32,000 nucleotides of DNA from Candidatus Saccharimonadota bacterium (GTDB taxonomy: Bacteria; Patescibacteriota; Gracilibacteria; Absconditabacterales; Absconditicoccaceae): contig CP006913.1 of NCBI GenBank assembly GCA_000503875.1, positions 60,001 to 92,000 of the forward strand. The letters run 5' to 3'. The notes under the pieces were generated by a model. The model did no database searches. It was not told the DNA's origin and saw only the letters and a program-made list of their open reading frames with translations. Positions 3,152 to 28,971 of the stretch are shown piece after piece (the first letter of the stretch is position 1; every line of letters starts with the position of its first letter). A program made the translations under genes and the position numbers.

Positions 3152-3177
3152 GATTTTTTCAAAAAATAAAAAATTAT

Positions 3178-3201
3178 AAAAAAAGTGATCTTTCGATCAC
3201 C
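3178..3201 (-). terminator. Rho-independent terminator ending the long minus-strand unit
   Basis: On the minus strand the sequence is GTGATC-GAAA-GATCAC (perfect 6-bp stem, GAAA tetraloop) followed by a T7 run. It lies 32 nt after the TAA of the 3233..3607 gene. A TATAAT hexamer (complement of 3173-3178) overlaps the T-run and could be the gatA promoter. Confidence 0.6.
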
Positions 3202-3232
3202 TTTGTAGTTATTTTGCTAGTAAGTTTCAAGT

Positions 3233-3607
3233 TTATTTAAATAATTGGAAAAGAATGTTTGATGAAGAGCTTGTTGTTTTTATTGGAGTTGTAGTAGTTT
3301 TTGTTGTAGTGGTTTTGGTGATAGTAGTTTTTGTTGTTGGTTGAACTATTACTGGTTCTTGTATTTCAGGGTCCGTAACAATAATTTTCTTCTCTTCAAT
3401 AATTTCAGAAACATCTCCCAAACTTTCTTCAGAGTCAGAAACAACATTATCTTTAACAGATTTTAATGATTCTACTGTTTCTTGAGTTGTTGTAACAAAA
3501 TCTTCCTTGAGTTCATCAGCTCATTTTCTATCAATTAACCAATAAATTCCATAAGCAATTCATAAGATAATTACAATAAATAAGATTCTTTTCAAGAGAG
3601 TAGACAT
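3233..3607 (-). CDS. Small single-pass membrane protein with Thr/Ser-rich (mucin-like) C-terminal tail, 124 aa
   Basis: Track ORF 3233..3421 extends through two TGAs to ATG 3605-3607. The N-terminus is MSTLLKRILFIVIILGIAYGIYWLIDRK (TM helix). An acidic linker follows, then TTKTTITKTTTTKTTTTPIKTTSSSS. The stop is TAA at 3233-3235. Confidence 0.6.
3292..3337 (-). repeat. 16-bp exact direct repeat (TAGTAGTTTTTGTTGT, offset 30 bp) underlying the Thr-Lys tail
   Basis: Identical 16-mers occur at 3292-3307 and 3322-3337. The offset is 10 codons, and they encode the repeated (T)TTKTT units. Confidence 0.7.
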
Positions 3608-3632
3608 CTTTTTTTTAGTGAAAAAATAAATG

Positions 3633-5150
3633 TTATTTTCAATGATCATATAAATCAATTTCTATCATATTACCAATGTTTTCTTGGTGTGTTTCTTCTT
3701 GTTTTTTTACTATAAAAGAGAAGGTAAAAATACTTCATTTTCATAATTCACTTTTTACAGTAATATCTCCGCCCATATGTTGACTAATTTTTTTTGATAA
3801 CGATAGTCCTATTCAAGTTCATCAGTATTCTCTAGTGCTTGAATTATCAACCTGTCTAAATCTTTCAAATATAATATCTTGTTTGTCTAATGGAATTCAT
3901 ATTCCCGTATCTTCAACTGTTATATAAATTTTTTGAATACCATCTATTTCTTCTATTTTTGGACAAGCGATCAAAATACATCATTCCTTCGTGAATTTTA
4001 TAGCATTTCAGATAAGATTGTTAAGGACTTGTTGTATTTTTATTTCATCTCATAAAACAATATCATTTAAATTATAAATATCCTTGTCTATTATAATAGA
4101 AATATTAGAACTACTTTTGTTTATAGAATGATCTTGTAATTCGACGACATCAGTAATAATGCTTTTTATTGATATTGGTTTCTCAATTAAAGAGCTCATA
4201 CCAGCTTCTAATTTAGCCATATCTAAAATATTGTTAATTAGTTTTAATAAATCATAACCAGCTTGATTTATTTTACTTAAGAATAATTTATTCTTTTCAT
4301 TTGATTCTTGTCTCAAAAGAATATCGGAGAATCATATAATTCAATTTAAAGGAGTTCTTAGTTCATGGGACATATTTGCTAGAAAATCATCTTTTAATGT
4401 AGATGTTTCTTCTGCTTTTCTCGCAAGCTCTTCGGCCAATTGTTTTTGCTCTTCAAGAATAGTCTGTTGTTCAATAAGTGATGTAATATCTATAGCAACA
4501 CCCATAATACGTTTTTGTCCATGTTCTACAATCGGCGTTTTTTTGAGTATTATAATATGTTCCCCATCTTCAAGTGGTAAAGAGATTATCTCTTCAAGAG
4601 TTTCTTGATCATCGTTTTCTTCAACAGTATCCAGAGAATTTTTATTTGAGGCTAATAAACGATTACGTATATCATCAGAAAGAAGAGGAAACAATTCTTC
4701 ATCAGTTTTATCTAAGATTTCTTCACTTCTTTTTCCAATCATTCTAGCGAAACTCTCATTTACTCTTGTATAAGTATTATCATAACTCATTATATAGAAT
4801 CAAATTCCAGGAATGTTTTTGAGTAATAGTTCAAGATTTTCTATGTTGAGTTCAAATTGTGTGGCCTGTTCTCTAGATTCTTTCAAACATTTTTTAAGAT
4901 CATTATTGTTTTTTTGCAGATGTTTATTGATATAATATCCAACAGCCGCACTTATCCCAGCCAATCACATAGTCTCTAAAGGACGAAATCAACTACTTTC
5001 GATTCATTGAAATACTATATCAGCACCAGGAATAGAACAAAGCGCAAGGTATATTTTTGTTTGTGAAGAAAGTGAAATATTTTGTATTTTATTTATTTTT
5101 TTCTCAAGAAAAGTTGATCATTCAGCGTTATGTCTCATAATCTTCATCAT
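3633..5150 (-). CDS. Sensor histidine kinase (N-terminal hydrophobic segment, PAS-like region, HisKA, HATPase_c), 505 aa
   Basis: Joins track ORFs 4050..4316 and 4341..4790 with extensions on both sides. The H-box is [23 protein letters not shown], with the two Gly encoded by TGA at 4341-4343 and 4332-4334. The N box is QQVLNNLIGNAIKFT. The G boxes are VEDTGIGIP and GGTGIGLSLSKKISQHMGGDITVKSELGKGSIFTF. The start is ATG-ATG at 5145-5150. The stop is TAA at 3633-3635. Confidence 0.9.
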
Positions 5151-5213
5151 ATATAAAACTTTATCAATCAATAGAAGTTACTGATTAAAAAATTATTGTC
5201 AATCTTTTGTTGT

Positions 5214-8200
5214 TTATTTTTTATATACTTCAAGGGCTTTGGTAAATTCATCAGCACCTGGAGGGAGTTGTTGTCGTAGTTCTGGACTATATTCAATAAG
5301 TACAGAAGCTCAATTAAAAATCATATTTCTTCTTTGTGTCTTAATACTATTTTCTCCTCAACTTACATAAAACCATTTTGATAGCGTAGATCTTTTATTA
5401 TTTACAAGATTTTCTATTCATCATCCAATAAGAACTCATTTAACATGAAGACCACCAGCATCACACCACTTTTTATTTAGGTCTTTATTTATGATAGAAT
5501 CAGCAGAAAAATTACTTGCTACAAAGATTCCTTTTACTGTTTGTGGTTTAGTACATGTACTATTTGAACTTTCATTAAATGAAATTGTTCAGTTTTGGAC
5601 AATAAACATACCGTTGACAGAAATATCTCCCTTGATTTCAAGATTTGCATCTTTTATAATCAGAGTGAAAGGTTTTGTTATATTTGTAGAGTTTTCTATA
5701 GTAATAGTAGTTCAATTACCTTTTCCATATAAGATATAAATATCCTTATTAGGTACTTTTTTCGCAGATGTTATTCAATCTCTTTCTAGGTTTTCTGGGT
5801 ATTTTGTAGTAGATACAGCTAGTTTTTCCATTCTATAAACAAAATTTTCAATCATTGGATTGATTACACCAAATCCGGCATATTCGCTTTCAGACAATAC
5901 CATTACACTAGCAAGATCAGTTTTGTTTACTAAAGGATCTCATTTTAACATTTCTTTAAAATTTTTGAGATCGATAGTTGTTGCTTTTGGTGTTATCCCA
6001 AAGGCACTCTTTTGTACAAGATATGGTTTGGTAATAGTGAAGTTAGTTTCACATGCATTTTGTAATTCTGTTTCTTCCCAATCACAACCATTCTCATCAC
6101 AAGCACAATATTCATAAGTTACTTTATCCAAACGAATTTTATGTTCTCCCAAAATATTTTCATCAAAAATTCTAGATGAAGCGAGTGTGTCAAAATTTAT
6201 ATAATAGTTTCCAAAAGCATTTCTCCAATACTCAGGATAAAAATTTTTGAAAAGTAAATCTTTGTCAAGTTGTGTATCAGAACAATCAATATTATTAAAT
6301 ATTTCTTCAGAATCTTCTCCAGGTTGTTGTAATGAGAATCAACATTTCATAGTAGATTTTTTAATTTTATTCTCATTATCTTCATCACATTTTGAAGAAG
6401 AAATAATATTGCTTGTATCATAAATTCTCCACCAGAAAGGCATAATTTCATTGTTTTGGACAGAGATATTAGCATTTCCTATAGAAAGACAAGATCCAGC
6501 AGGTTCATCAAGAGTACATCCTCTTTTACAACCATTTCCTTCTCATCTAGTTTCCCCTCAATCACATTGTTCATATCATTCTCTTTCTCCATTTCCACAA
6601 ATACCTACGAATCCTTCATCCAAAATAACATCATCGTCATCGCATTCAATTCAATTTATAGAACAGCTAATATTCATTTCATGTTCATCAAAATCATCTT
6701 CATCATATTTACATGTATATGTCATATGATCACCATTTTTACTATCTCCATCACCATTACCACAATCAATTTCAAGGGTAGCTTCAGAGTCCTCATTGTC
6801 TATAGAACATTCTACTTTTACTGTTCATTCTTCTTCATCAGCATCAAAAATAACAACATTAGATTCTAACCCTAATTCACAAGAAAGTACAGAACGTTTA
6901 CAAGCTTCATTAGTATTATCATTTCCTACAGTACAAGAAATTCTTGATCTTTCAGCTTCATTAGTATTATCATAGCTACATGTTGTAGAGAAGAAACCAA
7001 AAGGATCGGCAAATCAAGTCCCAGAATCTCAATTACCACAATCAATAGTTACAGGAGTAAATGTATTGGTATATTGACCAAGACATCTTGCAATAACTCT
7101 TGTAGAGCTGCTATTTTCAGGAGTTATATGCAAATCAACACAACTAGGATCTTTTAATGTGATAACAGCGTCGCTACAATCACCAGTTACACCATTAATT
7201 ACAACACAAGCTCTATTTGTTATACGTTTAGTGACTAAAGTACAAACATTTTGAATTTTTTCACAATCTTGATCTAGATTAGTAACTCCTTGTCCATCAA
7301 GTTCACATTCTTCATTTCTTGTTAATTCACCATCTCCACATACATAAGGTTCGTCTATAGTAAATGTTCTAGAAATTCAAGTATTATTGTAGGCTATTTC
7401 AATAGTAGGAGAAAGTGGAGTAAAATTTCTATAAGCAATACGTCCAGTAAGAGTAATTGATCCTTGTTGGTTAACTCAGATTGATAAGTTTTGATTATAT
7501 GTTTCAAAAGTAAGTGCTCAAGGATTTCTTACTGTAATGGTTGTGTTAGCTGGTACATTACCATTGTTTACATAAGAAATAGTAAATTGAATTAAATCCC
7601 CAGAAACAGCTTGAAGAGGGGAATTCAATAACGGCTTTGTTCGATTAAAAGCAGAAATAGTAAAAGCAATATTATCATACGCAGCCACTGTTCATGTAAT
7701 AAGAGAAATATCATTTCCTGTAGTTACTTGCGCTGAAGGAGTAGAAATACGAGCTTGACTAGAAAATTCTGTTCCAGCACTAAGAAATTGTCTGAGTGTT
7801 CAAGTTACTACAAGCATTCCCGTAGATCCTGCTGAAATTGATTTTCCTAGATTCCATTCTGTTTGAGTTGCTTCGATGCTAGATGGTAATGCAAAATTAA
7901 CCATAGGATTCCAAGCAGATGCAAATCAACTATTTCCATAAGTTATAATATAAGTAACGGTATCTCCCATTTTAAATCCACTAAACGGCAACATAATATG
8001 ATTAATATATACGTCAGCCAATCCTGGAAGGTCATTGGTAATTGCAAATTTATTGTTAGTAAGATCTAGATCTATCCCTGTAAAAGAAACTTCTCCAGAA
8101 AGACTAATACTCGTACCTTGCATAGGATAATCATTTAAAATCGAAGTATACGAAATAGTTTTTTCTTCGCCTCCAGCAAGCATTATTCCACTCAAAATAG

Positions 8201-9686
8201 TGGTTGTTTGTGAACTTTGATTTGCTGATGGATAGAGATTCAAAGTTATATTATTGGCTGTTTTTTCTCCTTTATTTGACAATTTAATATTGTAAGTAAG
8301 TGTTGTTCATTTATTTATAGTAACTAATTCATTAGTCAAATTTGCTTCTATAGCAACATCAGCACTTTTTACAAAGGTATAGCACAATCATGATAAGCTA
8401 TTATTATTTCACGTAGATGTTTCATTACTTGCACCAATAGTTCAAGAAAAACAAAATCTGGTTCCTATTGGATAATTTTGGTTTACTAATCACGTAACAA
8501 CCACAGTATTTATTGTTTCTGGCTCAAGGTCAGGAAGCGAAAATACAGTAGCAATTTGGTTAGTTCCACTAATAAGTGCAGTTAAAGAAACATTTTCGGC
8601 TCTTGCATTTCCTTTATTGGTATAGGTCATAGAATATCATAGTTCCTCTCCATTTGCCTCAGGTTCAGAGGAAATTTTTTGGAGATTTTCCAAGATAATA
8701 TCTATTACAGTTGGTAATGTATATGAAGTAACAGCAATATTATCAGAAAAGATTAATTCACGACCAGCTTGGATACTTCCAGTAGTAGTAATTACAGATC
8801 CAGCAGGAGGTGTTGATAATAATGGTGCAGCAAGTTTATATGCTTTGCTTGCTCCTGGAGCCAATGATCACAAATCCCAAGAGTAAATTCATTTACTTAC
8901 TTGTGAAGTAGTCAATTTGTCTTCCTGATAAGTGAGAATTGGTTCTCCCAAAAAATTTCCCAGAGCACTTGTAAGTTTTACAGCATCAGTACTTTCTTTA
9001 GATCCATTATTTGTTACAAGTATTTCATAAAGAGCTTGTTGTTGAGAAAATATTGGTTTAGGATCAATAATATTTTGTGTTATACTATAATTTGCGGTAG
9101 GAAGAATATAAGTAACGGGTTCATTTATACATGTAGAAGACCCAAAAGTTCTAAGACAAGCACTAGTTTCTATTCTATCAAATAATAAAGAAGAAGATAC
9201 AATTTCTCCTGTTACAATAATGTTTTTTGTTTCCGATACATTAATAAAATATTTTGGATTAATAAATCCATTTTGTAAAGCAATCAATCCTCAATTACTC
9301 AATCAATCTGAAGTAAGTTCAAGTATTCTTATTCTAGGATTATTATATGCGGGTGGTAATCTTAATTCAAAATATTTTGGGATAAGATTGTTTTGTATAG
9401 TAAATTTGAAAGTAACAATGCTTCCAGAAACAGCAAAAGAAGAAACAACTCTATTTTTTATAAGCGTATTATTTGCTAAACACGTAGTATTATGAGGAAT
9501 ACGAAGAGAATTTTTTGTACAAGAACAAAATCCATCAGGATTATTACAAGATTGGTATTCCTGACAAATAAAATTTCCCTCTGCATTTTGTGTACAATCG
9601 GTATATTCTAAGTCCTGCGCAAAAATTACTCCAGAAGCCAAGAGTCCAATAAGTACAGTAATACTACCAAAGATTTGTTTTTTCAT
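5214..9686 (-). CDS. Giant secreted surface protein, 1,490 aa: Cys-rich N-terminus, DUF11-like repeat region, Cys/Asp-rich modules with CGDG/CGNG...ECD repeats, unknown C-terminal domain
   Basis: I checked every codon of this frame from 5217 to 9686. There is no TAA or TAG, and there are more than 30 in-frame TGAs. It unites track ORFs 5940..6152, 7926..8282, 8637..8864, 8889..9287 and 9303..9725. The signal peptide is MKKQIFGSITVLIGLLASGVIFA-QD from ATG 9684-9686. DUF11-like strings such as GDLIQFTISYVNNGNVPANTTITV occur. Cys-rich repeats include CGDGELTRNEECELDG and CGNGEREGYEQCDGGETRGEGNGCKRGC. The stop is TAA at 5214-5216. Confidence 0.85.
6903..6973 (-). repeat. Exact 20-bp direct repeat (AGCTTCATTAGTATTATCAT, offset 51 bp) inside the giant surface-protein gene
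   Basis: The copies lie at 6903-6922 and 6954-6973. They encode two adjacent 17-aa units, each containing DNTNEA flanked by Cys (CSYDNTNEAERSRIS / CTVGNDNTNEACKRSVLS). Confidence 0.8.
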
Positions 9687-9709
9687 TCGTATATGAAATA
9701 GGTAAAGGT

Positions 9710-11563
9710 TTATTTGATGGTTCATTTAATTGTTATAGTTTTTTCTTCGAATCCTTGTAAACCACTTATTTCCCAAACAAGAACAGGACGTTCATTGATA
9801 TTTCTTGGAGCAGGATCTGAGTTCAGAAACCTCAAAGAATCTGGCCAAAAATCCTTAATTATAAAAGGTCCAACAGCTGTTGATCATAGATTTCTATAAG
9901 TAATGCTATATTCAACTTCATCTCCAGGTCCATAACCAAACGTAGTAACTTTCTTTTCGATATCTATTCACGCCATTGATTGTACAATAGAAACGCTAGC
10001 ACTTGTTGGTATTTGCTTATCTCCTCCAGCGTCTGTGTAATAAATTTTTCCTGTATTACTATATGTCTTTCCTGCACAACTTGGATTAGTACTTGCCTGT
10101 CCAGAAAAATTTATAATAAATGTTTGATTTGCTGGTAATCATCATAGAGGCCAATCTGTCAAAGTTCCATTTGAATTTGGTGTTACAGAAGGTGTTGATT
10201 GAGAACTTCCTGTTACAAAAGAGAAACAATCTGGCCACATATCTTGTACGCGAACATTGGTAATAGTACTCGTTGTACCATTATTAACTCTGATAGTAAA
10301 ACCAACTGTTTGTCATAATTGAACACTACTTGGAGTAGCTGTTTTGGAAATAGTTACCTCACCGCCAACAGAACATAGTACTTGTTCGTTTGTATATCAA
10401 TTAAGAGGTGTTCAGTTACTTATTGCTGACCAGAATGCATGATTTCGTCCGTCATTACAAGAATTAAATTTTGCGGTAATACGTATATATCCGTTTTGTC
10501 CTGCAGATAAGCTAAATCATGTATAGAGAACTACAAAATTTCAGCTTGCATTAGAACCAGTTTTGAAATAAGTAGGTCAAGTAACTCATACAATTTCACT
10601 AGAAATATATTCAAATCCACTTGGAAGAAAATAATCTTCAATAGCAATATTTTGTACTGTTTGTGTTGATGGGTTTGAGATATTTATTCTAAATTCAACA
10701 GTATCTCATGGGGTATGTAATTGAGAATTAACAAGAATTTTATCAACTACAAGACTTCCCGTTTCTGTCCCACTTCAAATTCCTGTACAATCAGTTTTAC
10801 ATTTTCCTGCTTGTCCATTTTGTGCTCAATCATCGCAGACTTCATTTGGTTTAATCGAATTTCCATGCCAAAGCAAAAATATTCATCATTGAGTTGTGAT
10901 TCATCAATTTCCATCACTTGTTCCTGTTTGTTTATCAATCACACCATCACCACATCTTGCTACATAATAATTAGTACAAGATATTTTTTTGGTAATGCTT
11001 GGATTTATTATTACGTTTAATGTTCCATTATGAAGAGAAAGGTCATTAGCTCTTATATAATAATAATTTAATAAGACGCCATTTGCATTTTGGACAATAG
11101 ATCTTTCGTTGTTAAATGTTACAAATTGTCCTGCAGCTTGATTTCTTGTTGTATTTGCAGATCATAATAAAGTGGCTCCAGTAGCGTCAACAGTCAATAT
11201 ATTAGAACTATCTGAATCTATGGTTGTAGATGGTACAAAATTGGAAACGTAAGGAAATTTAATATTACCAACAAAAGTAGATTGATTATATCCTCTTACG
11301 TACGTTTCTGTTTTATCAAAAACATAGCTTACAGGTCATTTTGGTTGACCAACACGAAGATATACAGGAGATCAACTATAAAAAGCTAGATCTTGGGTTA
11401 TATCACAAGTTCAATTGTAAATAGTTGTTTCTCGGTTTAATGTTCTGTTTTCGTTTGAACTACTTGGAACATCACCAATTACATTACTAGCAAATGTTAT
11501 GTTAGTTAATCAAACTATCATACTTATAATTAATATTGCTTTGTAATAATTTGTCTTTATCAT
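9710..11563 (-). CDS. Secreted protein, 617 aa: N-terminal unknown domain, CGDG...CDDG Cys-rich module, three DUF11-like repeats
   Basis: The frame was checked codon by codon from 9713 to 11560. It has no TAA or TAG and many TGAs, so the standard-code track shows no ORF in this frame at all. The signal peptide is MIKTNYYKAILIISMIVGLTNITFA-SN. The Cys-rich module is YYVARCGDGVIDK...NEVCDDGAQNGQAGKCKTDC. The DUF11-like repeats are LVVDKILVNSQLHTPGDTVEFRINISNPSTQTVQNIAIEDYFLPSGFEYIS, VTISKTATPSSVQLGQTVGFTIRVNNGTTSTITNVRVQDMWPDCFSFV and IDIEKKVTTFGYGPGDEVEYSITYRNLGSTAVGPFIIKDFWPDSLRFL. The stop is TAA at 9710-9712. Confidence 0.85.
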
Positions 11564-11592
11564 GACAAGGGAAATAAGGGTAAAAGATGTTA

Positions 11593-12672
11593 TTAGTTAA
11601 TAAATACTTCGACAAATGCTTCAGTAAACGTTGGAAGACAAATACTACTACAGAAATGAAAACTTGGATCGTCTCCATTTATCATTCAGTCAGTATCATT
11701 TTCTGTGTCTCCATCATCACATTCTTCAAAACTCATATCATTTGTATCACCATTATAATAAGTTCCAGCTGGCTGTAAAGTTTCATCTCCACATTTCTCT
11801 TTTGATCAGCCAAATCAACTACATGTAGCATTACAGCATCCAAGCGTTCCATTTACACAAGCTGCGCCAGTTTCTGTATTGGAATCACATTTTTCTGCTG
11901 TAAAACCTGTATTTGTCCATACAACAAATCATTGAGCTGTTTGTATTCCTTGTTTTCCATTTGTACTATTTCATCATTCTTTATTCGGATCATCAATTAC
12001 TTTGTCTCAACAAGTTGCCACATAAAAGTTCATACAAATAGTATTTTTAGGTGATGGATTAAATGCGCTGTTGATTTTATAGTTCCAAAGATGCACTCCA
12101 TTGTTTTCATCAAACCATTTGTAAGAAGAGGTTGTCTGTGCTGTTTTGGAGCCTATTTGTTGTTTTGAAATTTGAGCATTTATTTGTGCACTTACTCAAG
12201 TTCTAGTCATTCATCCTGTAGTAGTATACATAGCAGCAAACTGTCTTGCAAATTTTACTTTACTTACTCCTTCTGGTTTTACATTTGAAATATACATAAA
12301 ATTTGGAATAAGTTGGTTAGCTTCGGTTGCAGTAGGGGATGAAGATAGTACTCCATAAGGATTCCAAAGATATATTTTGCTAATATATGGCATATTTTCT
12401 GGTGTATCTGCAATAGGTACTCCAGCAGTTGTTGGATGATTATTGAGATATCGATCTGAAGATTCTCCATCTTTAACAAGGATTCCATATGATATACTTT
12501 GTCCAATATAATGTGCAAGATTTTTATTTTCCTGACATTGTTGAGAAAGTGTATCGCTTATATGTTGATCTACAGGATTATAAGCAAAAACACGAGAAAA
12601 ACCGAAGGTTAAGCTCATGAGTATAACACTATATCACAATATATTTCTAGTCTTTCATATTAAATATTTCAT
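11593..12672 (-). CDS. Secreted Cys-rich protein, 359 aa, paralogous in its central module to the 9710..11563 product
   Basis: Track ORF 12211..12618 extends upstream through two TGAs to ATG 12670-12672, giving MKYLIGKTRNILGYSVILMSLTFGFSRVFA-YN. It extends downstream through multiple TGAs to TAA at 11593-11595, and I checked that frame codon by codon. It contains NFYVATCGDKVIDD..., CVNGTLGCCNATC and FEECDDGDTENDTDG...FCSSIC. Confidence 0.8.
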
Positions 12673-12718
12673 AAAAGAATTTTGTTAGAAGATAATAATT
12701 TTTGTTATGGAATTATAA

Positions 12719-15700
12719 TTATTTTTTCTTTTTCTTTCTCAAATCTTCATTTCATGTTCCTACACCTGTTCAGAAAGATTTAGTTCAGCTTAATGGAGCA
12801 TTTCCATTTCATGGAATTAGTTCGTTAGTAATATCTCCTCATACAGGGATTTCTGTTCCTGTAAAGATAATATTTTCTGTATTTCCGTTCAAAAATTCTT
12901 GGAAAGCAGCCAGGTCATCTGGAATAAATATAGTTTGATTTCCATTTCCATCAATACGTGTATACGACAACCCATCTTCATTTAGCACAAATTGATCTTC
13001 TGGTTGTACCTCAAGTGTGATATCTTTTTCTTCTACAACTTCAGTAGTTACTTTATCTTCTTTTGGTTTTTGTTTTACAAAAGTAAAACTTACTTCTCTA
13101 GTGGCTTTTTGTGCCATATTTGCTCTATTAAGTGTTCCTGTGGTATTGGTTCGAAGTCAAACCATCGGTGGCATAACAGATATTGTTTCATCTATAGGCT
13201 TAGTATTTTTTTCTGTAATTTCAATATTTTCTGGTACAAATCCTATGGATTCATTTGCACATTCTTTGAGTAAATAGAATGTTCGATCTACGTTCAACTT
13301 AATAGTATATATTTTATTATTAATGTCAATAGTAACTTCATTCGGAATCTTATTGGATTTGTTATCTAATGTATATTCAAAAAGAGATTTTATTTTTGTT
13401 CGATTAAGTTTATCAAACAGATTTTGAGGAAGAGTAGGATTGGTCTTCAACATAGCATTGAGCGTATTCTTAAATATTTGTTGTTCTTGTATATTTTTTT
13501 CAAAGTTTGATAAAAACCAATCTCTAGGACGTGTGTCGTTTTCATTTATCTTGGACATATATGTTTTATTTGTTTTTAATACATTGGTATATCCTGGCAA
13601 AGTCATTGATCGATTTTTCGCTTCTTGGTTTGCTCCATTTCTATATCGTGCAGTATATCCAAATATTGGTGCATCTGTCGGTATATCGAAAGGAGTGTGC
13701 TTGTTATCAATAAATTGTTGTCTGAGAGCGTCAATACCGATTTCAGTTGGTACCTTTGAAGATGGACCACTAATTGTCTTTCGTCTATCACCACGTCATG
13801 TTAAAGTATTTACAATATCTCTATGATTATTAAATTTTCCATCATAATTATCTGCAAAAACACTCTTCACATGGTTTACGATTTGCGTTTTTTCCAAAGA
13901 AGTTCATGAAAAAAGTTTAGTTTTCAATGTTGTAATATCTGCGTTGATAGTATAATTTGGTATTTTTTCCAAAAGTTTTATCAAACTTATAGCTGTTTGA
14001 TCTATATTTCTAGAACTAATTCCACTTGCCAAGAAATTTTCAAAATCCATATCCTTTGGATTATCAAGTTTTTTTAATTCAGATTTTATATTTGTTATAG
14101 ACTGTTCAAATGACGTAGTAAGTCTATTGACTGCCTTTATCTCGTATTTACTAACAATATTTGCTTGTTCTTTATAGATAAGTGTATGTTCTCCATTTGT
14201 TGCGTCAGAAAGTGTTTTGGTATATGGAGAAACACTTCCATCTATAGTTACTGTTGTGCGCAAAGGAATATCTGTCAAATCTGCTATAGCGATATTGTTC
14301 TTATCATAGTAAGTAATTTTATTGTTTTGTACCACTACTTTTTCTATAGGAAATAATGAATATTTGTTTTTGAGCGTTGTAATTTTATTATTTAAAGATT
14401 TTTGAATATCAAGAGTCTGATCTGCCAATTCTTTATCTCATAACCAATCTTTTGGAACAGCTCTTCCAATCTTCAATTGAAGATCTTCTTTTTCTGTTTT
14501 CACATCACCAATATTGAGAACATGAATATTGTCTGTTCCTTGTTTTCTTTGCATATGACGAATTGCTATAGATACGGGAATTTGAATAGCTTTTTCATTG
14601 GTCCCTTCTTGAGTAACCTCTTTCAAATATCCTTTTAATGCAGGGTCTATATTGATATTAATATTTCCTTTTTGATACAATGCCTTTGGTAAGATAAAAT
14701 ATTTTCCATCAGAAGACAAAGAAATATTATACTTATTAATAAGTGTTGTTTCGCTATTTACAATTTTTTCTACCTTATCAATAGTTAATGCCTTATTGAG
14801 ATAATCAACAGTACCTTGATGGTTTTCAATATTCTTAAATTCATTTCAAAATCCAGTAGTTTCAGCCATATTATTGCGTTGAATACTTTCTTGGGTATCT
14901 TTGAAATATAAGTTCTTGTATTTTGCTATTTGAACACAAACTGTTGGTATAGGGTAGTATCAAGCCAAAAATTGAACTCACAATGAAGCATTACTAAAAT
15001 GCCAGCGATTGAGTCCCAAAATTTGTTCGTTAGTTCGATTAGTTACATAAAAGTCAGCAACTAATGATGAAAAATGACCAATATTTTCTTGAATACTTTT
15101 ACGATCATTATCGGTAAATCCAAAATAAGTTAGAGCTGTATACATATTATTAGCTGCTTTTTCTATAGTTTCTATATCAGAATTTCCAAATTGTTTTTGA
15201 AGAATTCTTTTAAAAAGTTTGATACTATCAGATTTGCTTCCATCCAATTGATCATAATTTTTGATAAATTCTTGTATTATTGGTTTTACTCAACTTCTTA
15301 TATATTCAGATTGTTCTTCGATTCCTCTCATTTTATCAACACCAAATCCAGCGGTAATTCAAATAGCAGGAATTATACCTCCAATAAGAGTAAGATTTGG
15401 TCCTAATGATACTTTTTTAGCAGAAGAAGCATCAAGGTTTTTCTTATTTTTATTGGTAATCCATTTTTCTGCTCAACCACCAATACTTGCAACAGGTATA
15501 AATCCATTTACAAGCCCCAAAGATGCTCCTGTATATATTGCTGTATTTTCGTCCAAATTAAAATTCTTGTTTCGCGCAAGATGTACACCAAGAACAGAAG
15601 GCGTATCACCTACAAAACCAGTTCCCACATTGATGCTAAGTCCTTGAAGAAGATTATCCAAAGAAACACGAACTCCCGCACCTAATCATTGTTGTTTTGC

Positions 15701-17890
15701 TTGAATCAACGGTGTTGCTATAGCTTGGAAAAGCCCTTCTTTGATGATAGGATCCACATCATATTGTTGTAACTGGTCATCAATATAGGCATGGATTGTT
15801 TTTTTATCTTGATCATTTAAATCATCGATCATTTCTGAATAATGTTTAAACGCATTATTTCATTGTGTCAAAAGAAGATCAGTATCAAGCGGTGATTCCA
15901 AAAGTACTGTTTGTATAAATTTAACAAATCCAGGATCTCTAAATTCGCCAATAAAACTATCAAGCTTTGTAGAATAATCAGCTTGGCTTCCAATTGTATT
16001 TAATATTTTTGCATAATTTTTGAAATTTTTTGTATTTGCATGACTTGTTGCAACATTAATCAGATTTGAGAGAACATTTTCTTCTCAAACTTCATCTATA
16101 GCAGTAGCATAATATGAACGTAATTGTAATCCTGTTCTTACCGCACCATCACCAAAATCAATTCTACCATCTCTATTGAGATCAGTAAGTATATTTACAA
16201 ATTTGTTTTGTTTTTCTTCTAGAGTACCAACTTCTTTTGATGCTTCATAGGTATGTTTAGCATTGGCATATTGTTCGATATTTGTTCCAAGGCGGGTTGC
16301 ATTGAAAAAATGGAGAAATGCTGCTTTTCCATCCGATAATTCATCTATTCCTATATCGCCTGATAGCACTTCATATAAATGATTTTTCTTGCCATCATTA
16401 TCCATAGCTGGTTCTAATTGTTCTACAAGGAAAGTAATAAATTTAGCTTCTTCACCTCTACCTTTCATTACTTCATCTTCATATCATTCTGATCTACTTT
16501 CTTCTACTCTTTTCATATTACTTTCAATTACTTTATTTATATTTAGTTTTTCATTTCGTCTAGACAATTCTTTTGCTGCTTTTTTATCCAAAGATCTAGA
16601 TGTTTTTTCAAGAATATCAAAAGCTTTTCCATGAGTATTTAATGTTCTTTGAAACATATTTCTATTTTCTTTTGCTAATCATGATTCTTTTCTAGATTTA
16701 GCATTATTAATTGTATTATAGATTTCTACAAAGGTAGTATTTGGATTTTTGATAAATTCCTCGGTGAAAAGTTTGATTACACGAGAAAAATATGGATAAT
16801 CATTTGATGGTTTCATAGCGGTAGTAAATAGAACACCAAGTTTAGCTATATTTTCTTCTTCCCCTGATCGGTCAGCATCTGGTCATTGTTGAAAATATAT
16901 TTTTTTAACCTCTTTGATGGCATCTCCAAATGAGTCTAATCAGATATCGGTAATTGTTTTTCTTAGTTCTTTTAGGAGTTTTTTTTCTGATCCTGTAGGT
17001 TTAAAGTTTTGATCAACGAGAAGTAAAGATGCTTCCTTTCCAGAAAGAATTTTTTTGAGAGCTCTTTTGTCTGGTGTATTTTCTGGTAGATCTCAGTCAT
17101 CTTCATCTATATCAAGATAAGATTCTCCTTTATAAAGAATAACATCATTGATAGGGTTGTATATTTTTTCATTAGTTTTTTTGTCTGTGTAATATTGTTG
17201 AATATTTTTATCTAACGCATCAAACAAATTAGTATTGTTAGAATTATTTTCTACAAGTTTATCCTTGTTGTTTGTTTTATTATTTAAATCGTCATCCTTT
17301 TTTAGTCCAGCATTTATTCCTGCTCAATGATATCGACCGTATCACGCAAGATTACCGTCTGTGCTATTATTTGAATTAGAAACAGCACCAAGAACTTCAT
17401 CTTTTAAATAGTTAAGTTCCAATTTGGAAAGATCTATAACGGTCTCTGTTTCAGCAGATATTGTTTCTCTAAAAGCTTCGAAAACTGTTTTAAAAGAGCC
17501 AATTGCATTTGATAAATCTAAATTGTGTTTATATTCTTCTATTTTTTGAGGATTTTGAATGTCTTGTAAAAATCATTTAAACAATGTTTCTATTGCAGAT
17601 TTTTTTTCTTCCTTACTGCTTTGTCCATTTAAAATATCTTTTATAATGTCTTTTTTTTCTATCATATATGCATCAAAAAGCGTATCTGTTATCGTATCCA
17701 AAGATTTAATTTTATCAGAAATTTTAGCATCAAGGTTTTTATCCTTAAACTTTTCGTCAAAGTGAATATTATCGACGGATTGTCCTTTGTCCTTATCCCC
17801 GATAATCTTCTTTAACCAGTCAAGTTCCTGTCTAGTGTTGCCAGTTTCTCTTGAAGGGAGATATTCATTGGCTGAGTAAGTGGTTCCCAT
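12719..17890 (-). CDS. Giant orphan protein, about 1,723 aa, no recognisable signal peptide or known domain
   Basis: Track ORFs 12839..13117, 13157..13606, 13904..14428, 14438..14719, 14978..15247, 15473..15661, 16085..16468 and 17573..17965 all share one frame. I checked every gap between them, and they contain only TGA, never TAA or TAG. A frame open for about 1,700 codons in AT-rich DNA is not expected by chance. The start is placed at ATG 17888-17890 (MGTTYSANEY...). In-frame alternatives are ATG near 17938 and TTG at 17965. The stop is TAA at 12719-12721, after a KKKKK tail. Confidence 0.8.
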
Positions 17891-18045
17891 AATGCGTTGT
17901 ATAAATAAATAGAATATACTAAATCGTAATTGAAACATTGCACATAAAACTTGTGCGGTATACAAATCTAATAATACTCTAAAACAAAAAAACAGCTAAA
18001 AAAACCCAAAAATTCTATAAAATGATAAACCATTTTTTAAAAAAA

Positions 18046-18053
18046 ATTATACA
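18046..18053 (-). promoter_or_regulatory. Candidate extended -10 promoter (TGTATAAT) for the giant-gene unit
   Basis: The complement of 18046-18053 reads TGTATAAT, a perfect TGnTATAAT. It lies in the A-tract-rich divergent intergenic region, about 155 nt upstream of ATG 17890. Confidence 0.4.
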
Positions 18054-18092
18054 ATATCAAAAACAACAAACAAAAAAATACGAAAAACAATC

Positions 18093-18120
18093 TTGACTTT
18101 ATTGTTTAGATTGTTATAAG
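18093..18120 (+). promoter_or_regulatory. Candidate sigma70-type promoter for the 18155..19665 gene pair
   Basis: TTGACT (18093-18098), a 16-nt spacer that includes TG at 18112-18113, then TATAAG (18115-18120). It lies 35 nt upstream of ATG 18155. Confidence 0.5.
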
Positions 18121-18154
18121 AACAAAATCAGATTTTTATTTGTGTCAAAAAGTC

Positions 18155-19165
18155 ATGGTGAAAAAAACTTTGGGAAAAAGTATCTTATTTGTTACGATGA
18201 TAGGGCTTATTTTCTGATGAATAACCAAAGCTGATACAACAATCAAAACGTTTTTTGGTATGTCATGTGAGATTACAAGAATACCTGTTTCTTGAATCTC
18301 CGCAAAAACAATATTTGATCCAAGTCAGTATACAGATGAATTAGCGGCTCTTACTAAAAAATGATACAATAGAATTGATCTTATAAAAGAATTTGTTAAT
18401 GGGGATCAAATGATCAAAGTATTGTTGGGAGAAAAATGTAATCTCCCTGTGTTGAGGATTAATCAAGAAGAATCCGTTAATGATATTTGAATTGATCATA
18501 TTGAAAAAAGAGGAAACAGTTTATTAATGTATGGTGCCAAAGATTGATATGCAACATTGATTGCATGTGATTTAGCTACATTGAAATGAAATTCATACAA
18601 ACCTTTTGACGCCGAGAAACAATCAGTTTCTATAATTTCAACTCCCACTGTAGATTCGACATCATCAACAACAATCCAACAATGAACAAAAGATTTCGAT
18701 AGCAAAACATCGCAATTGTTACAAACACCGTTAGTGTTGGAAAAAAAGAATGTTCATCCTCAGGATGCTTTTCTTTTAATGAAGCAACCAGTATCAAAAA
18801 TAATTACATTTTTTGGAGGGAACTGGAAGCGTGACAGAAAAATATTAGCTGAAACATTAAATATAGCAAATTATATATGAACAAAAGAACAAAATCTTCA
18901 GATTAGAAGCTATCTACTTTCTTATATAACTATTCAATTTGAGGCAATAGAAACTACGGAAATTGAGCTATCGGTACAAGAATACCAGTCAGCTCAACAA
19001 AAAGTTGTTTCTGATCTTGCCAAAATGCGAGGATATACACGAAAGTATGACAGGCGAGTTCTTTTTCAAGAAATAGGCGAAGATATTTCTTCGTATAAAT
19101 GAACAAGAAATCAAAACATAAAAATAAGAAACTATTTATTAACAAAAACCAAAACTAAAAATTAA
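18155..19165 (+). CDS. Hypothetical secreted or membrane-anchored protein, 336 aa
   Basis: The plus frame was checked line by line. It has 10 in-frame TGAs and no TAA or TAG until 19163-19165, so the standard-code track shows no plus-strand ORF here. The N-terminus is MVKKTLGKSILFVTMIGLIFGGITKA-DT (signal or anchor). I recognised no domain. Confidence 0.75.
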
Positions 19166-19170
19166 ACTAT

Positions 19171-19665
19171 ATGTCAACATCAATCATTTATGATCAAGGG
19201 AGCTCAAAAGATATGATCCCTTTTGTTGGTCTTTTCGCTGATAAGGAAGAAGTACGCAAAAAACTTCTTGAAATATGTGAATTAGATTCTGCGCTGGATA
19301 CTACTGCAAAAATTCCTGCAGTAAACAATCCAACATTTGTCTTTATTTCTGGAAATTCTAGATTTGAAGATTCAAAATATTTGAAGAAATTTTACAATGA
19401 TCTTCTTGAATTAATCAAGGATCAATGGGTAAAGGCAGATCAAAATCTGATTTTGGTAGTGATATTGGAATATTTTAATTCAGGATCGGGTAAAACAATA
19501 GGAGATCTTTTTACTGAATTAAATAACTTTTTTGGAAACCGCTTCCATATAGTATGGTTAGCGGATGATGAGAATTATGTAGGCGCTGGAGAGGATTATA
19601 AAGAAATCTTAGAGAAAGAATCTTTTTTAATCGAAGAGGTTATTATAAAGCCAAAGAAAAAATAA
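19171..19665 (+). CDS. SiaC/DUF1987-like protein with an N-terminal extension of about 50 aa, 164 aa
   Basis: Intact track ORF with no TGA, starting 5 nt after the upstream stop. The pattern FVFISGNSRFEDSKYLKKFYNDLLELI...LILVVILEYFNSGSGKTIGDLFTEL...HIVWLADDENYVGAGEDYKEIL...FLIEE matches my recollection of the DUF1987 consensus (I.G.S.PE..FY.P...W....L.YFNTSS.K......L....V.W.Y..D.D....GE.F....F). The family assignment is from memory, not from a search. Confidence 0.8.
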   Translation: MSTSIIYDQGSSKDMIPFVGLFADKEEVRKKLLEICELDSALDTTAKIPAVNNPTFVFISGNSRFEDSKYLKKFYNDLLELIKDQWVKADQNLILVVILEYFNSGSGKTIGDLFTELNNFFGNRFHIVWLADDENYVGAGEDYKEILEKESFLIEEVIIKPKKK

Positions 19666-19673
19666 GAGAATTT

Positions 19674-19706
19674 AAAAGGAAGTTGTATTAACTTCCTTTT
19701 TTTTTG
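19674..19706. terminator. Hairpin terminator shared by convergent genes
   Basis: AAAAGGAAGTT (19674-19684), loop GTATT, AACTTCCTTTT (19690-19700), then a T-run on the plus strand. The TAA of the convergent minus-strand gene (19688-19690) lies in the loop/stem. Confidence 0.7.
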
Positions 19707-20149
19707 TTTTTTTGAGCTATGAGATTATCTAGTATAGCATTTGCAACAGACATTTCTTTTTGAGCATCAAACATATCTTCTATTTGTTGTTCGTCTGTTA
19801 AATTTCCTTTGTTAGCAATATTTGACCTAAAGATTCTATTAGATAATCAAAACCAGGCATCAGCTTTCGGATAGTTATTTAGTTTTTTATAAAAACGTTT
19901 GTTTAATGTTTCTTCATTTTCTTTTGATGGTATAGTAGGTACAGCCATATCAAGTATAGGTATATAGATTCCTCTATTTGCTTCATCAGACATAGTAAAT
20001 GCATCCATAACATCTTGATGAATGTTATTGAAATTTTCTAAATGTTCTATAGCAGATCTTCTCAAGAGAGATGCTAAATGTTGAAAAGATCTTTGTTGTT
20101 TTTCATTTAAACGAATATGAGATGATGGGGTATTATTAGGTAAATTCAT
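19688..20149 (-). CDS. Hypothetical protein, 153 aa
   Basis: Track ORF 19847..20149 extends through TGA at 19847-19849 to TAA at 19688-19690 (...ADAWF-G-LSNRIFRSNIANKGNLTDEQQIEDMF...AQKNKKKGS). It starts 14 nt after the ftsK stop, so it is probably co-transcribed. Confidence 0.65.
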
Positions 20150-28383: not shown

Positions 28384-28971
28384 ATGAAGAAACTAATGTA
28401 TTTGGTTTCCACATTGATTATAATCAGTTTGGTAACCCCTGTTTTTGCACAGGTAGAAGCAACAGACACCACAGGATGGGCTACTGCAATTAATTGGTCT
28501 AACAATTCAAAAAGAGACCTAAAGAAGCAAGTTAGCAAAAAAATGAACGAAGAATTAAAGAAGTACGCTGAAAAGTGGACTAAAGAATTCCTTGATCAAC
28601 CTAGGAAAACGGCCATTGAAAAAGTAGCAATTGATTTAAAAATCATTGCCGAACAATTCCATAAATTATATGCTGCAGCCTCAGCTGCATATATATTAGG
28701 AAAAAAGGGTTACTTCCAGAAGGAAGAAGTTGAGCCATTTCCTTTCGATCCTCGAGAAGAAGTTGATAAAGAAAATTATCTTATCGGCGAATTCTTATAC
28801 GAAGAGAGAGAAGGTTTGCGCTATTATATTAGCCAAGGGAATAGAGGTCTTTCAAACTACCTCGATGCCCCATCTTACTTAGTGACGGGAAATCGTAAAG
28901 TCAAAGGTGGTCAACAGATCATCAATGAATACGCAGCCCAGATCGTAAGAAGGTGGGAAAATGCTTATTAG
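28384..28971 (+). CDS. Hypothetical secreted protein, 195 aa
   Basis: Intact track ORF with no TGA. The signal peptide is MKKLMYLVSTLIIISLVTPVFA-QVEA. It is followed by a GC-rich hairpin terminator. I recognised no domain. Confidence 0.8.
   Translation: MKKLMYLVSTLIIISLVTPVFAQVEATDTTGWATAINWSNNSKRDLKKQVSKKMNEELKKYAEKWTKEFLDQPRKTAIEKVAIDLKIIAEQFHKLYAAASAAYILGKKGYFQKEEVEPFPFDPREEVDKENYLIGEFLYEEREGLRYYISQGNRGLSNYLDAPSYLVTGNRKVKGGQQIINEYAAQIVRRWENAY

Follow-up and report, generated by a model that had tools for sequence, protein, structure and literature searches.

Bacteria of the Gracilibacteria and Absconditabacteria, of which genetic code 25 is a mark, are believed to be epibionts or predators, and to our knowledge the molecules with which they contact their hosts are essentially unknown beyond type IV pili. 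In Mycoplasma pneumoniae the attachment organelle combines the adhesins P1, P30 and P40-P90 with the large acidic cytoplasmic proteins HMW1-3, which are needed for adhesin function. Here we analysed a stretch of 32,000 nucleotides (nt) from Candidatus Saccharimonadota bacterium, placed by GTDB in the Absconditabacterales (assembly GCA_000503875.1, contig CP006913.1, positions 60,001 to 92,000; the window). Its minus strand carries a block of genes that begins with a giant protein of 1723 amino acids (aa) and continues with three predicted exported proteins, which we name p359, p617 and p1490 by their length in aa. As judged from gene order in related loci, the conserved unit is the giant together with one to three predicted Sec-exported Cys-rich proteins, not the run of six genes that an earlier note on this DNA had taken for one dedicated module.

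The adhesin part of this unit is of a known kind. DUF11 has been renamed CLIPPER, a CnaA-like stalk domain of fibrillar adhesins that is often isopeptide-bonded and whose solved domain is PDB 9IFR (bioRxiv 10.1101/2025.04.25.650565). Like these adhesins, p617 and p1490 start with a predicted Sec-type signal and carry tandem CLIPPER repeats above cutoffs and non-repeat end domains, and by domain matches their architecture is that of an adhesin stalk (CLIPPER/DUF11). Unlike them, the module has no recognisable anchor or known adhesive head domain, and its adhesin is split into two or three polypeptides, which have a Cys-rich module in common and invariant termini, always behind a giant gene that lacks an export signal. 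Vampirococcus lugosii, of the Absconditabacteria, has giant membrane or surface proteins with DUF11 and adhesion domains, for which a role in attachment to prey has been proposed (PMC8080830). These, too, are large DUF11/adhesion-domain proteins of a code-25 bacterium from the candidate phyla radiation (CPR), with a proposed function in host recognition and fixation; they differ, in a comparison made by description only, in being single proteins inferred to be membrane-located, with no operon containing a domain-less giant (PMC8080830). The obligatory pairing of adhesins with a giant appears to be undescribed: we found no description of an operon of a giant and exported proteins in the searched literature, which is absence of evidence and not proof.

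Gene calling with table 11 breaks the open reading frames (ORFs) of the window into fragments; it yields 9 ORFs of 150 aa or more, against 33 when TGA is read as sense. We noted that UGA falls on invariant glycines of DnaK (IGIDL[G]TTNS, the glycine in brackets), of the Walker A motif of FtsK (GAT[G]SGKS) and of NrdG (G[G]EPT). The window therefore uses code 25 (UGA is Gly), not code 4, and the gain of ORFs and the recoded invariant glycines agree with the earlier note, which had taken the DNA for that of a code-25 bacterium. Under this code we also recovered the six consecutive minus-strand genes that the note had reported, with gaps of 46, 29, 23, 63 and 25 nt:

12719..17890, minus strand: giant gene, 1723 aa, an ORF under code 25; first gene and invariant member of the module.
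11593..12672, minus strand: p359, 359 aa, predicted exported, of a 19-member family.
9710..11563, minus strand: p617, 617 aa, predicted exported, with three CLIPPER/DUF11 repeats.
5214..9686, minus strand: p1490, 1490 aa, predicted exported, DUF11/CARDB; invariant member of the module.
3633..5150, minus strand: PAS-HisKA-HATPase_c histidine kinase, 505 aa, by Pfam; lineage-specific accessory.
3233..3607, minus strand: small Thr-rich transmembrane (TM) protein, 124 aa; last gene ahead of the terminator.

The flanks are made of housekeeping genes, for RNase Y, GatA, FtsK, a PD-(D/E)XK protein, PPDK, DnaK, TsaD and NrdG. No Rfam families or tRNA genes were found in the window.

The three close full-length homologues of the giant (80%, 51% and 51% identical) lie in the same gene order as in the window, and so does the one GTDB representative; the patterns of the GTDB scan were specific for one of the two types of giant described below (type A), returned 1 locus and give no measure of distribution. 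The search with p359 found the 19 family members, and contigs with the same four-gene order. In the window's own locus (W) and the related loci compared with it, L001-L011, the giant is followed by a protein of ~350 aa, a CLIPPER protein of ~610-930 aa and a CLIPPER/Cys-rich protein of ~1250-1510 aa. Two of these loci, L007 and L011, lie in unrelated genomic contexts, outside the frame formed by ftsK and gatA. A first scan of metagenomes with peptides from the centre of the giant, both type A-specific, gave nothing. A search of JGI metagenomes with the C-terminal module of p1490 yielded 33 loci (28-51% identity), all of which read UGA as sense, and every locus with enough upstream sequence had a large signal-less ORF directly upstream on the same strand. 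A hidden Markov model (HMM) of the giant confirmed this ORF in 12 of 13 distinct JGI loci, at E 0 to 5e-39; at L043 the 1830-aa upstream ORF was counted by position alone, the giant HMM being not significant there and both signature motifs of the family absent.

By HMM, giants stand directly upstream of adhesin genes in 22 of the 23 informative loci. The window holds one copy of a module that is common among code-25 Patescibacteria. Adjacency and orientation are kept in ~23 loci with a GC content from 29 to 43%, three variants of gene number and at least three genomic contexts. Among the JGI loci, the four-gene form occurs at L012/13, L022, L025 and L028, the three-gene form at L014/15, L021, L027 and L029, and the two-gene form at L031, L033, L034 and L039. 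In the last, a single fused adhesin, matched by the p359C and p617N HMMs, carries p617N-like and p359-like modules together with p1490C. The earlier note had itself proposed conservation of gene order across related code-25 genomes as a test. The giant and the exported genes are kept, but the kinase and the small gene are not. More than 20 informative loci lack the kinase, and the small protein and the terminator go with the FtsK-GatA clade, so the idea of six genes as one dedicated module does not stand.

In all three exported proteins, a K/R n-region and a hydrophobic h-region precede a ...FA cleavage-type site, the features by which signal peptides were called here on inspection of the sequence. 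These features are conserved in all homologues, with KD19 hydrophobicity of 1.8-2.3 for p617 and p1490. The proteins contain 12 (p359), 10 (p617) and 42 (p1490) Cys residues. The repeats of p617 span 9713-10756 and match Pfam DUF11 (PF01345) in three stretches at 97.1 bits (1.1e-27; cutoff 24.6), as well as NCBIfam TIGR01451 (91 bits) and TIGR04226, the isopeptide-forming fimbrial domain (40.4 bits against a cutoff of 30). For p1490 the matches were Pfam DUF11 (55 bits, 1.3e-14), CARDB and TIGR01451 (41 bits). Three exported Cys-rich/DUF11-like proteins had been claimed, and for p617 and p1490 this is correct, but p359 has no DUF11. Its parts are instead an N-terminal domain predicted to be a beta-sandwich (aa ~30-220), a Cys-rich CGDG module that is conserved and shared with p617 (36% identity over 110 aa), and a conserved C-terminus formed by the terminal peptide LPTFTEAFVEVFIN at 11596-11637. 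The AlphaFold2 (AF2) model of its N-domain is a beta-sandwich of moderate confidence (pLDDT 65-83), for which Foldseek found no match (best E 0.23, TM-score below 0.25). The conserved parts of p617 are the mature N-terminus NVIGDVPSSSNE (NVIGDVP...) and the N-domain behind it. In p1490, CLIPPER/CARDB repeats are followed by a Cys-rich middle and a conserved C-terminal module of ~430 aa (5217-6506) that ends in ...LPPGADEFTKALEVYKK, a nearly invariant terminal peptide. Neither p359 nor the C-terminal 430 aa of p1490 matched Pfam, NCBIfam, PHROGs or PDB sequences, and no PDB or phage relative of the p1490 C-module was found. The only PDB sequence match of p617 is 9IFR; in a weak match (E 0.2), repeat 2 places its Lys and Asp opposite the isopeptide Lys and the catalytic Asp region of that structure. 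A Myxococcus-type Cys-rich repeat (TIGR02232/PF13948) was considered for CGDGxxxxxEECDDG and rejected, as there was no model match in p359, p617 or p1490 (Pfam E<=0.01, NCBIfam E<=1) and the likeness is at the level of the motif only.

Sortase-assembled Gram-positive pili of the RrgB/SpaA type also have several exported subunits with Ig-like isopeptide-type domains, and p617 scores above the TIGR04226 cutoff; the conserved subunit termini of the module likewise suggest ordered assembly. Unlike such pili, the module lacks a tail of LPXTG, TM and basic residues: p359 stops with its 'LPTFTE...', no residue following LPTFTEAFVEVFIN, and the C-termini of p617 and p1490 lack LPXTG. No sortase was found by Pfam and NCBIfam among the six products of the block. 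With neither a sortase in the block nor such a tail, assembly by transpeptidation, as in a sortase-dependent pilus, is unsupported.

The giant of W is acidic, has 2 Cys and lacks a signal peptide. Full-length giants from the ~23 related loci range from 1594 to 1861 aa; all are acidic, with low-complexity G/T/P/D-rich C-terminal tails, and none has a signal peptide, in line with the earlier description of the W giant as cytoplasmic-looking. We found no match for the giant in Pfam, NCBIfam, PHROGs or PDB. It had been called an orphan, and it has indeed no annotated family, but at least 22 homologues share a C-terminal signature with it. A phmmer search with one conserved, TGA-free fragment of 132 aa against 1.84 billion representatives, on which the lack of outside relatives rests, returned the family's own representative and three other proteins; the latter carry FG-GAP, dockerin or EF-hand domains and matched a Ca2+ loop alone. 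The features of the giant are:

13160..13795, minus strand: C-terminal family-defining domain (aa 1366-1577), with the positions at least 90% identical in 22 giants.
13640-13660, minus strand: GYTARYR motif (aa 1411).
13247-13279, minus strand: FYLLKECANES motif (aa 1538), including the invariant Cys1544.
15311..15685, minus strand: Gly-rich hydrophobic hairpin-like repeats (aa 736-860) of the SLGxxxxGxIPxxS type; type A giants only.
16148..16183, minus strand: DxNxDGxID Ca2+-binding-type loop DLNRDGRIDFGD (aa 570-581), the loop matched by phmmer; type A giants only, deleted in type B.

Positions at least 90% identical in the 22 giants cluster in this C-terminal region. Both motifs of the signature, G[YF]TAxYR ... 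FYLLxxCxNES, are present in 17 of 22 giants, spaced by 106-130 aa (127 aa in W, from aa 1411 to 1538) and lying some 100-190 aa ahead of the C-terminus. For the C-domain, AF2 gave a model of low confidence (pLDDT 51), and PDB profile searches gave two non-significant matches for the C-domain (E 0.29 and 0.52) and none for the core. The giants fall into type A (W, L001, L003-5) and type B (L006-9, L011), which BLAST aligns at their ends only. Profiles of the two types, however, align collinearly over 1293 columns in hhalign (probability 100%, E 4.5e-41, 22% identity). The Gly-rich hairpin segment, with KD19 up to 1.88, is invariant among type A giants and missing from type B, in which the KD19 maximum does not exceed 1.37, there is no TM-like segment, the net charge is -31 to -55 and Cys are few. 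A peptidoglycan-binding repeat in the L033 giant was rejected, having no Pfam support.

A very long first gene, which in type A has Gly-rich hydrophobic segments, followed by fibre-like proteins with conserved assembly ends and variable distal parts, is also the layout of phage tail modules. Unlike these, the downstream proteins carry Sec signals, no other phage genes are present, and the module occupies a fixed slot between ftsK and gatA. In PHROGs, 0 families matched the giant, p359 or p1490, and scans of IMG/VR and tblastn against GenBank phages were negative; with no relative in any of the three, a phage or tape-measure origin was rejected.

The variation between loci is distributed unevenly along the unit. 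In two independent close pairs, the ratio of non-synonymous to synonymous substitution rates (dN/dS) of the giant is 0.19, and the giant is therefore a real, constrained and fast-evolving gene. The other genes of the block have dN/dS of 0.07-0.40 (0.17 for the kinase), compared with 0.02-0.04 for FtsK and the PD-(D/E)XK protein at similar dS; the exported proteins thus evolve several-fold faster than the flanking housekeeping genes, as expected for proteins of the surface or of host contact. Between lineages whose FtsK is 93-94% identical, identity is 24-38% for the giant and 16-38% for the N-domain of p359 (24-28% and 21-29% when W is compared with such lineages). The giant and the p359 N-domain split into the same four groups. 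Across the same lineages, p359-C, p617-N and p1490-C are mostly 43-77% identical, and the last 150 aa of p359 are 59-77% identical, the outlier L003 excepted. The extreme C-termini of p359 and p1490 and the mature N-terminus of p617 are nearly invariant. The CLIPPER region of p617 is mosaic, with 70% identity between L001 and L008 and 54% between W and L001. The picture that emerges is of assembly ends that are conserved, and of distal or specificity parts that can be exchanged, within a chromosomal slot that is fixed.

At L003/L005, p359 (8370-9452) lacks the LPTFTEAFVEVFIN tail and ends in ...EKNTEPETFPEELG, and the N-domain of p617 (9479-11320) is an outlier, with 38-45% identity against 56-75% in the other loci. 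This suggests that both conserved interfaces, the p359 tail and the p617 N-domain, have changed together. Directly downstream of ftsK, at 19688-20149 of the window (minus strand), lies a 153-aa ORF of no family that is only 26-41% identical between close relatives; as it is hypervariable, the variable zone runs from there through the giant to the N-domain of p359.

The limits of the presumed transcription unit are marked in W by two elements:

3181..3204, minus strand: intrinsic terminator with a 10-bp stem, GAAA loop and U7, ending the unit 30 nt before gatA.
18046..18053, minus strand: TGTATAAT, candidate -10 only: TG joined directly to a TATAAT hexamer, within the divergent intergenic region of 264 nt.

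The terminator (GGUGAUC-GAAA-GAUCACU plus U7, 3204-3181) folds at -11.5 kcal/mol with z -3.4, and is kept with compensatory changes of the stem in 7 of 7 loci of the FtsK-GatA frame (W, L001, L003, L006, L008, L009, L010), where, for example, GGUGAUC/GAUCACU is replaced by GAUGGUC/GAUCGUC. The downstream GAAA-tetraloop terminator of the earlier note is therefore well founded. Its statement that no gap contains a hairpin terminator was likewise borne out. Four of the five intergenic gaps of W fold at 0 kcal/mol, and the 63-nt gap holds an AU-rich hairpin of -8.7 kcal/mol that we rejected as a terminator, because 40 of 200 shuffled sequences fold equally well (z -0.77). The gaps of the module core are 20-53 nt and unfolded in every locus of the FtsK-GatA frame. 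The note had further placed a perfect extended -10 upstream of the block. TGTATAAT is indeed present at 18053-18046, but its TG directly abuts TATAAT without the spacer base of the canonical TGnTATAAT. No canonical site was found upstream of the giant, the 3 in the window compare with 3.3 expected by chance, and promoter-like sites in the block number 83 against a shuffle expectation of 87; the claim of a promoter for the block is weak. Judging from the spacing and conservation of the genes, the giant, the small membrane protein and all genes between them probably share one transcript that ends at the conserved terminator. At 3152-3232 (minus strand), we also observed a TATAAT within the U-tail of the terminator, ~20 nt ahead of the gatA start, and one short region may thus serve to terminate the upstream unit as well as to initiate transcription of gatA.

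What could such a unit do? The best-supported reading, which we judge about as likely as not, is that it specifies a surface fibre or adhesin complex of exported Cys-rich/CLIPPER proteins, by which the cell contacts a host, prey or substrate and whose specificity parts vary as cassettes. The conserved termini of the exported proteins would serve for their assembly, at the surface of the monoderm cell, into a fibre or adhesin complex, stabilised by disulfides and possibly also by isopeptide bonds, and this would mediate contact with a host cell, a prey cell or another surface. The hypervariable parts, exchanged by recombination, would set specificity or escape recognition, the giant and the p359 N-domain being replaced or diverging as a cassette. 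The most speculative part of this proposal concerns the giant. Because it is under the same diversifying pressure as the exported parts, it is probably exposed too, exported by a Sec-independent route, and it may dock to the terminal peptides of the exported proteins via its C-terminal domain with G[YF]TAxYR ... FYLLxxCxNES. The attachment or predation apparatus of the earlier note stays something that we infer, as the literature suggests for the giant DUF11 proteins of Vampirococcus.

Several observations weigh against a surface fibre with an exposed giant. From its sequence the giant looks cytoplasmic, with no signal peptide and, outside type A, no TM-like segment, and its average dN/dS of 0.19 denotes purifying, not positive, selection. 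Its co-variation with the p359 N-domain can be explained by linkage, since the two genes are adjacent and could lie in one recombination tract. Among the exported proteins, a crude isopeptide pattern (K..D.P..N) is seen in one CLIPPER repeat only, repeat 2 of p617. Pfam, NCBIfam and the C-termini revealed no envelope anchor (LPXTG with TM, C-terminal TM, wall-binding or OmpA-like) in p359, p617 or p1490, whose C-termini are conserved hydrophilic or amphipathic peptides without a TM segment. Nor was an adhesive tip domain recognised, the p359 beta-sandwich having no Foldseek match. At L007 and L011, the gaps between p617 and p1490 are 70-107 nt long and contain hairpins (-12 to -14 kcal/mol) that might act as attenuators within the module. 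Finally, co-transcription, export and assembly of the module are all matters that we infer.

Alternatively, in what we regard as a tentative but serious minority view, the giant would stay in the cytoplasm as a scaffold, anchor or assembly platform for surface adhesins, in the manner of HMW1/2/3. The likeness to M. pneumoniae, which is by analogy only, is that of a reduced-genome, host-dependent bacterium in which adhesins go with very large, acidic, signal-less proteins with low-complexity tails. A scaffold would suit the lack of signal peptides in all giants, the absence of TM-like segments in type B (KD19 at most 1.37, charge -31 to -55), the scarcity of Cys in giants next to Cys-rich exported partners, the G/T/P/D-rich low-complexity tails and the strictly conserved adjacency of giant and adhesins. 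However, the giant is the most variable gene of the locus (~25% identity against 94% for FtsK) and undergoes replacement of type, which is unexpected for a scaffold. There is also no family-wide membrane-spanning partner that would link it to the outside, the small TM protein being clade-specific. M. pneumoniae further differs in that CPR bacteria have peptidoglycan and the giant is hypervariable, and Pfam revealed no sequence or domain similarity of the giant to HMW or cytoskeletal families. In our ranking, a giant that is exposed or exported as a partner stands slightly ahead of one that acts as a scaffold in the cytoplasm.

A bolder version of an exported giant, which we think unlikely, would make it the payload of a two-partner host-contact system unique to code-25 Patescibacteria. 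The giant would be exported or delivered by a Sec-independent route, dock with its C-domain onto the invariant terminal peptides of the Cys-rich/CLIPPER fibre and act directly on the envelope of the host or prey, and the swapping of cassettes of giant plus tip between strains would change the range of targets. On this proposal, parts of type A giants that might enter a membrane are the Ca2+ loop and the Gly-rich hydrophobic hairpins.

The surface-fibre proposal takes in the giant and the exported proteins. If all six genes of W formed one apparatus, the PAS kinase would sense contact and regulate the adhesins, and the Thr-rich protein would be structural. Pfam identifies HisKA (6.4e-20), HATPase_c (4.9e-29) and PAS_4 (2.6e-5) in the kinase. 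The earlier note had called it a membrane sensor kinase; the kinase domains support the second half of this name, but its N-terminal segments are weakly hydrophobic (KD19 maximum 1.25). Where present, it lies between p1490 and the small gene (W, L001, L008, L010) with gaps of 23-72 nt, in a block with one shared terminator. In W the 63-nt gap holds no significant hairpin (z -0.77), and the dN/dS of the kinase, 0.17, is close to that of the block genes. However, among ~27 loci informative downstream, the kinase was found only in W, L001/2, L008 and L010, and it is missing from L003/5, L006, L007, L009 and every informative metagenome locus. At L003 the small gene follows p1490 directly, after 23 nt. 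No response regulator was found among the genes of the window. The small protein has an N-terminal TM helix (KD19 2.31), a Thr-rich tail and a conserved ...SSSNILFQLFK end; we found no family match for it, and homologues only in the FtsK-GatA clade of 30% GC, plus L012 and L037. An apparatus of six parts is thus quite unlikely. By its distribution, the kinase is a recent insertion in one clade and a local regulator at most; the Thr-rich membrane protein, like the terminator, is part of the local FtsK-GatA frame in a single clade of 30% GC. At the distant loci, the place of the kinase and small-protein pair after the module is taken by a NosD/beta-helix protein (17868-20144 at L007; 758 aa, signal peptide).

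Hypervariability and the replacement of cassettes inside a conserved chromosomal frame are typical of balancing or diversifying selection, and the neighbouring 153-aa ORF and a SiaC-like gene (below) are hypervariable too. Such a pattern would also be expected of a surface coat that varies for protection or as a decoy, or of a locus for phage receptors, with diversification driven by phages or host immunity, or of a defence or polymorphic-toxin island with the giant as effector. We consider all of these improbable, as no nuclease, ATPase, toxin or immunity domains and no PHROGs or viral relative were found, and CLIPPER stalks are typical of adhesins. A CBASS-lipase match in NCBIfam was rejected at 14.9 bits against a cutoff of 200.

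That the genes are chance neighbours or operon hitch-hikers, the giant being functionally unrelated to the exported proteins, is hardly credible: an interaction of giant and adhesins is a proposal, and the block does not differ in GC content from the remainder of the window, but synteny brings this explanation close to refuted, with adjacency and orientation kept in ~23 loci of 29-43% GC, in three gene-number variants and at least three contexts, and with core gaps of 20-53 nt.

Beside the module, at 18155-19165 of the window (plus strand), a divergent gene encodes a 336-aa signal-peptide protein without a Pfam match, present in W, L001 and L008 only, another clade-specific insertion. Its two C-terminal repeats of ~45 aa match (E 1.1e-5) part of PHROG 2307, a family of L-alanyl-D-glutamate peptidases, and the protein could be wall-binding or lytic. 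At 19171-19665 (plus strand), divergent from the giant, lies a regulatory-phosphoprotein-like gene of the SiaC family (PF09345, E 3.7e-12). It is 25-40% identical where FtsK is >90% identical, occurs in the FtsK-GatA clade only, and has no SiaA, SiaB or SiaD nearby. Further away, a 195-aa signal-peptide protein with no family match is encoded between dnaK and a patatin-like gene (28384-28971, plus strand).

The public records of these loci depend strongly on the genetic code. The public entries P0001-P0025, for loci L001-L011, were translated with code 4, with Trp at each in-frame UGA, not with code 25, and identities come out ~3% too low as a result. At L006 (GCA_964586005.1, CAZPFR010000010.1), the 4.8-kb giant ORF (5100-9947) is uncalled, only an antisense gene of 93 aa being annotated there; the L006 annotation also splits ftsK, and the L006 giant contains a masked N run. 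L005 (CAZUIS010000002.1) is labelled Candidatus Peribacteria (NCBI phylum Peregrinibacteriota), but UGA is clearly a sense codon there and the locus hardly differs from L003; the label is probably imprecise. With code-25 genes mistranslated or missed in this way, the giant family is invisible to routine annotation.

The locus can now be recognised by the signature of the giant family, two spaced motifs, together with defined exported partners that have invariant termini. In these partners and in the giant, the conserved parts are candidate assembly interfaces and the swapped parts candidate specificity determinants. Determinants of host range thereby become testable in two cultured relatives and in metagenomic population data.

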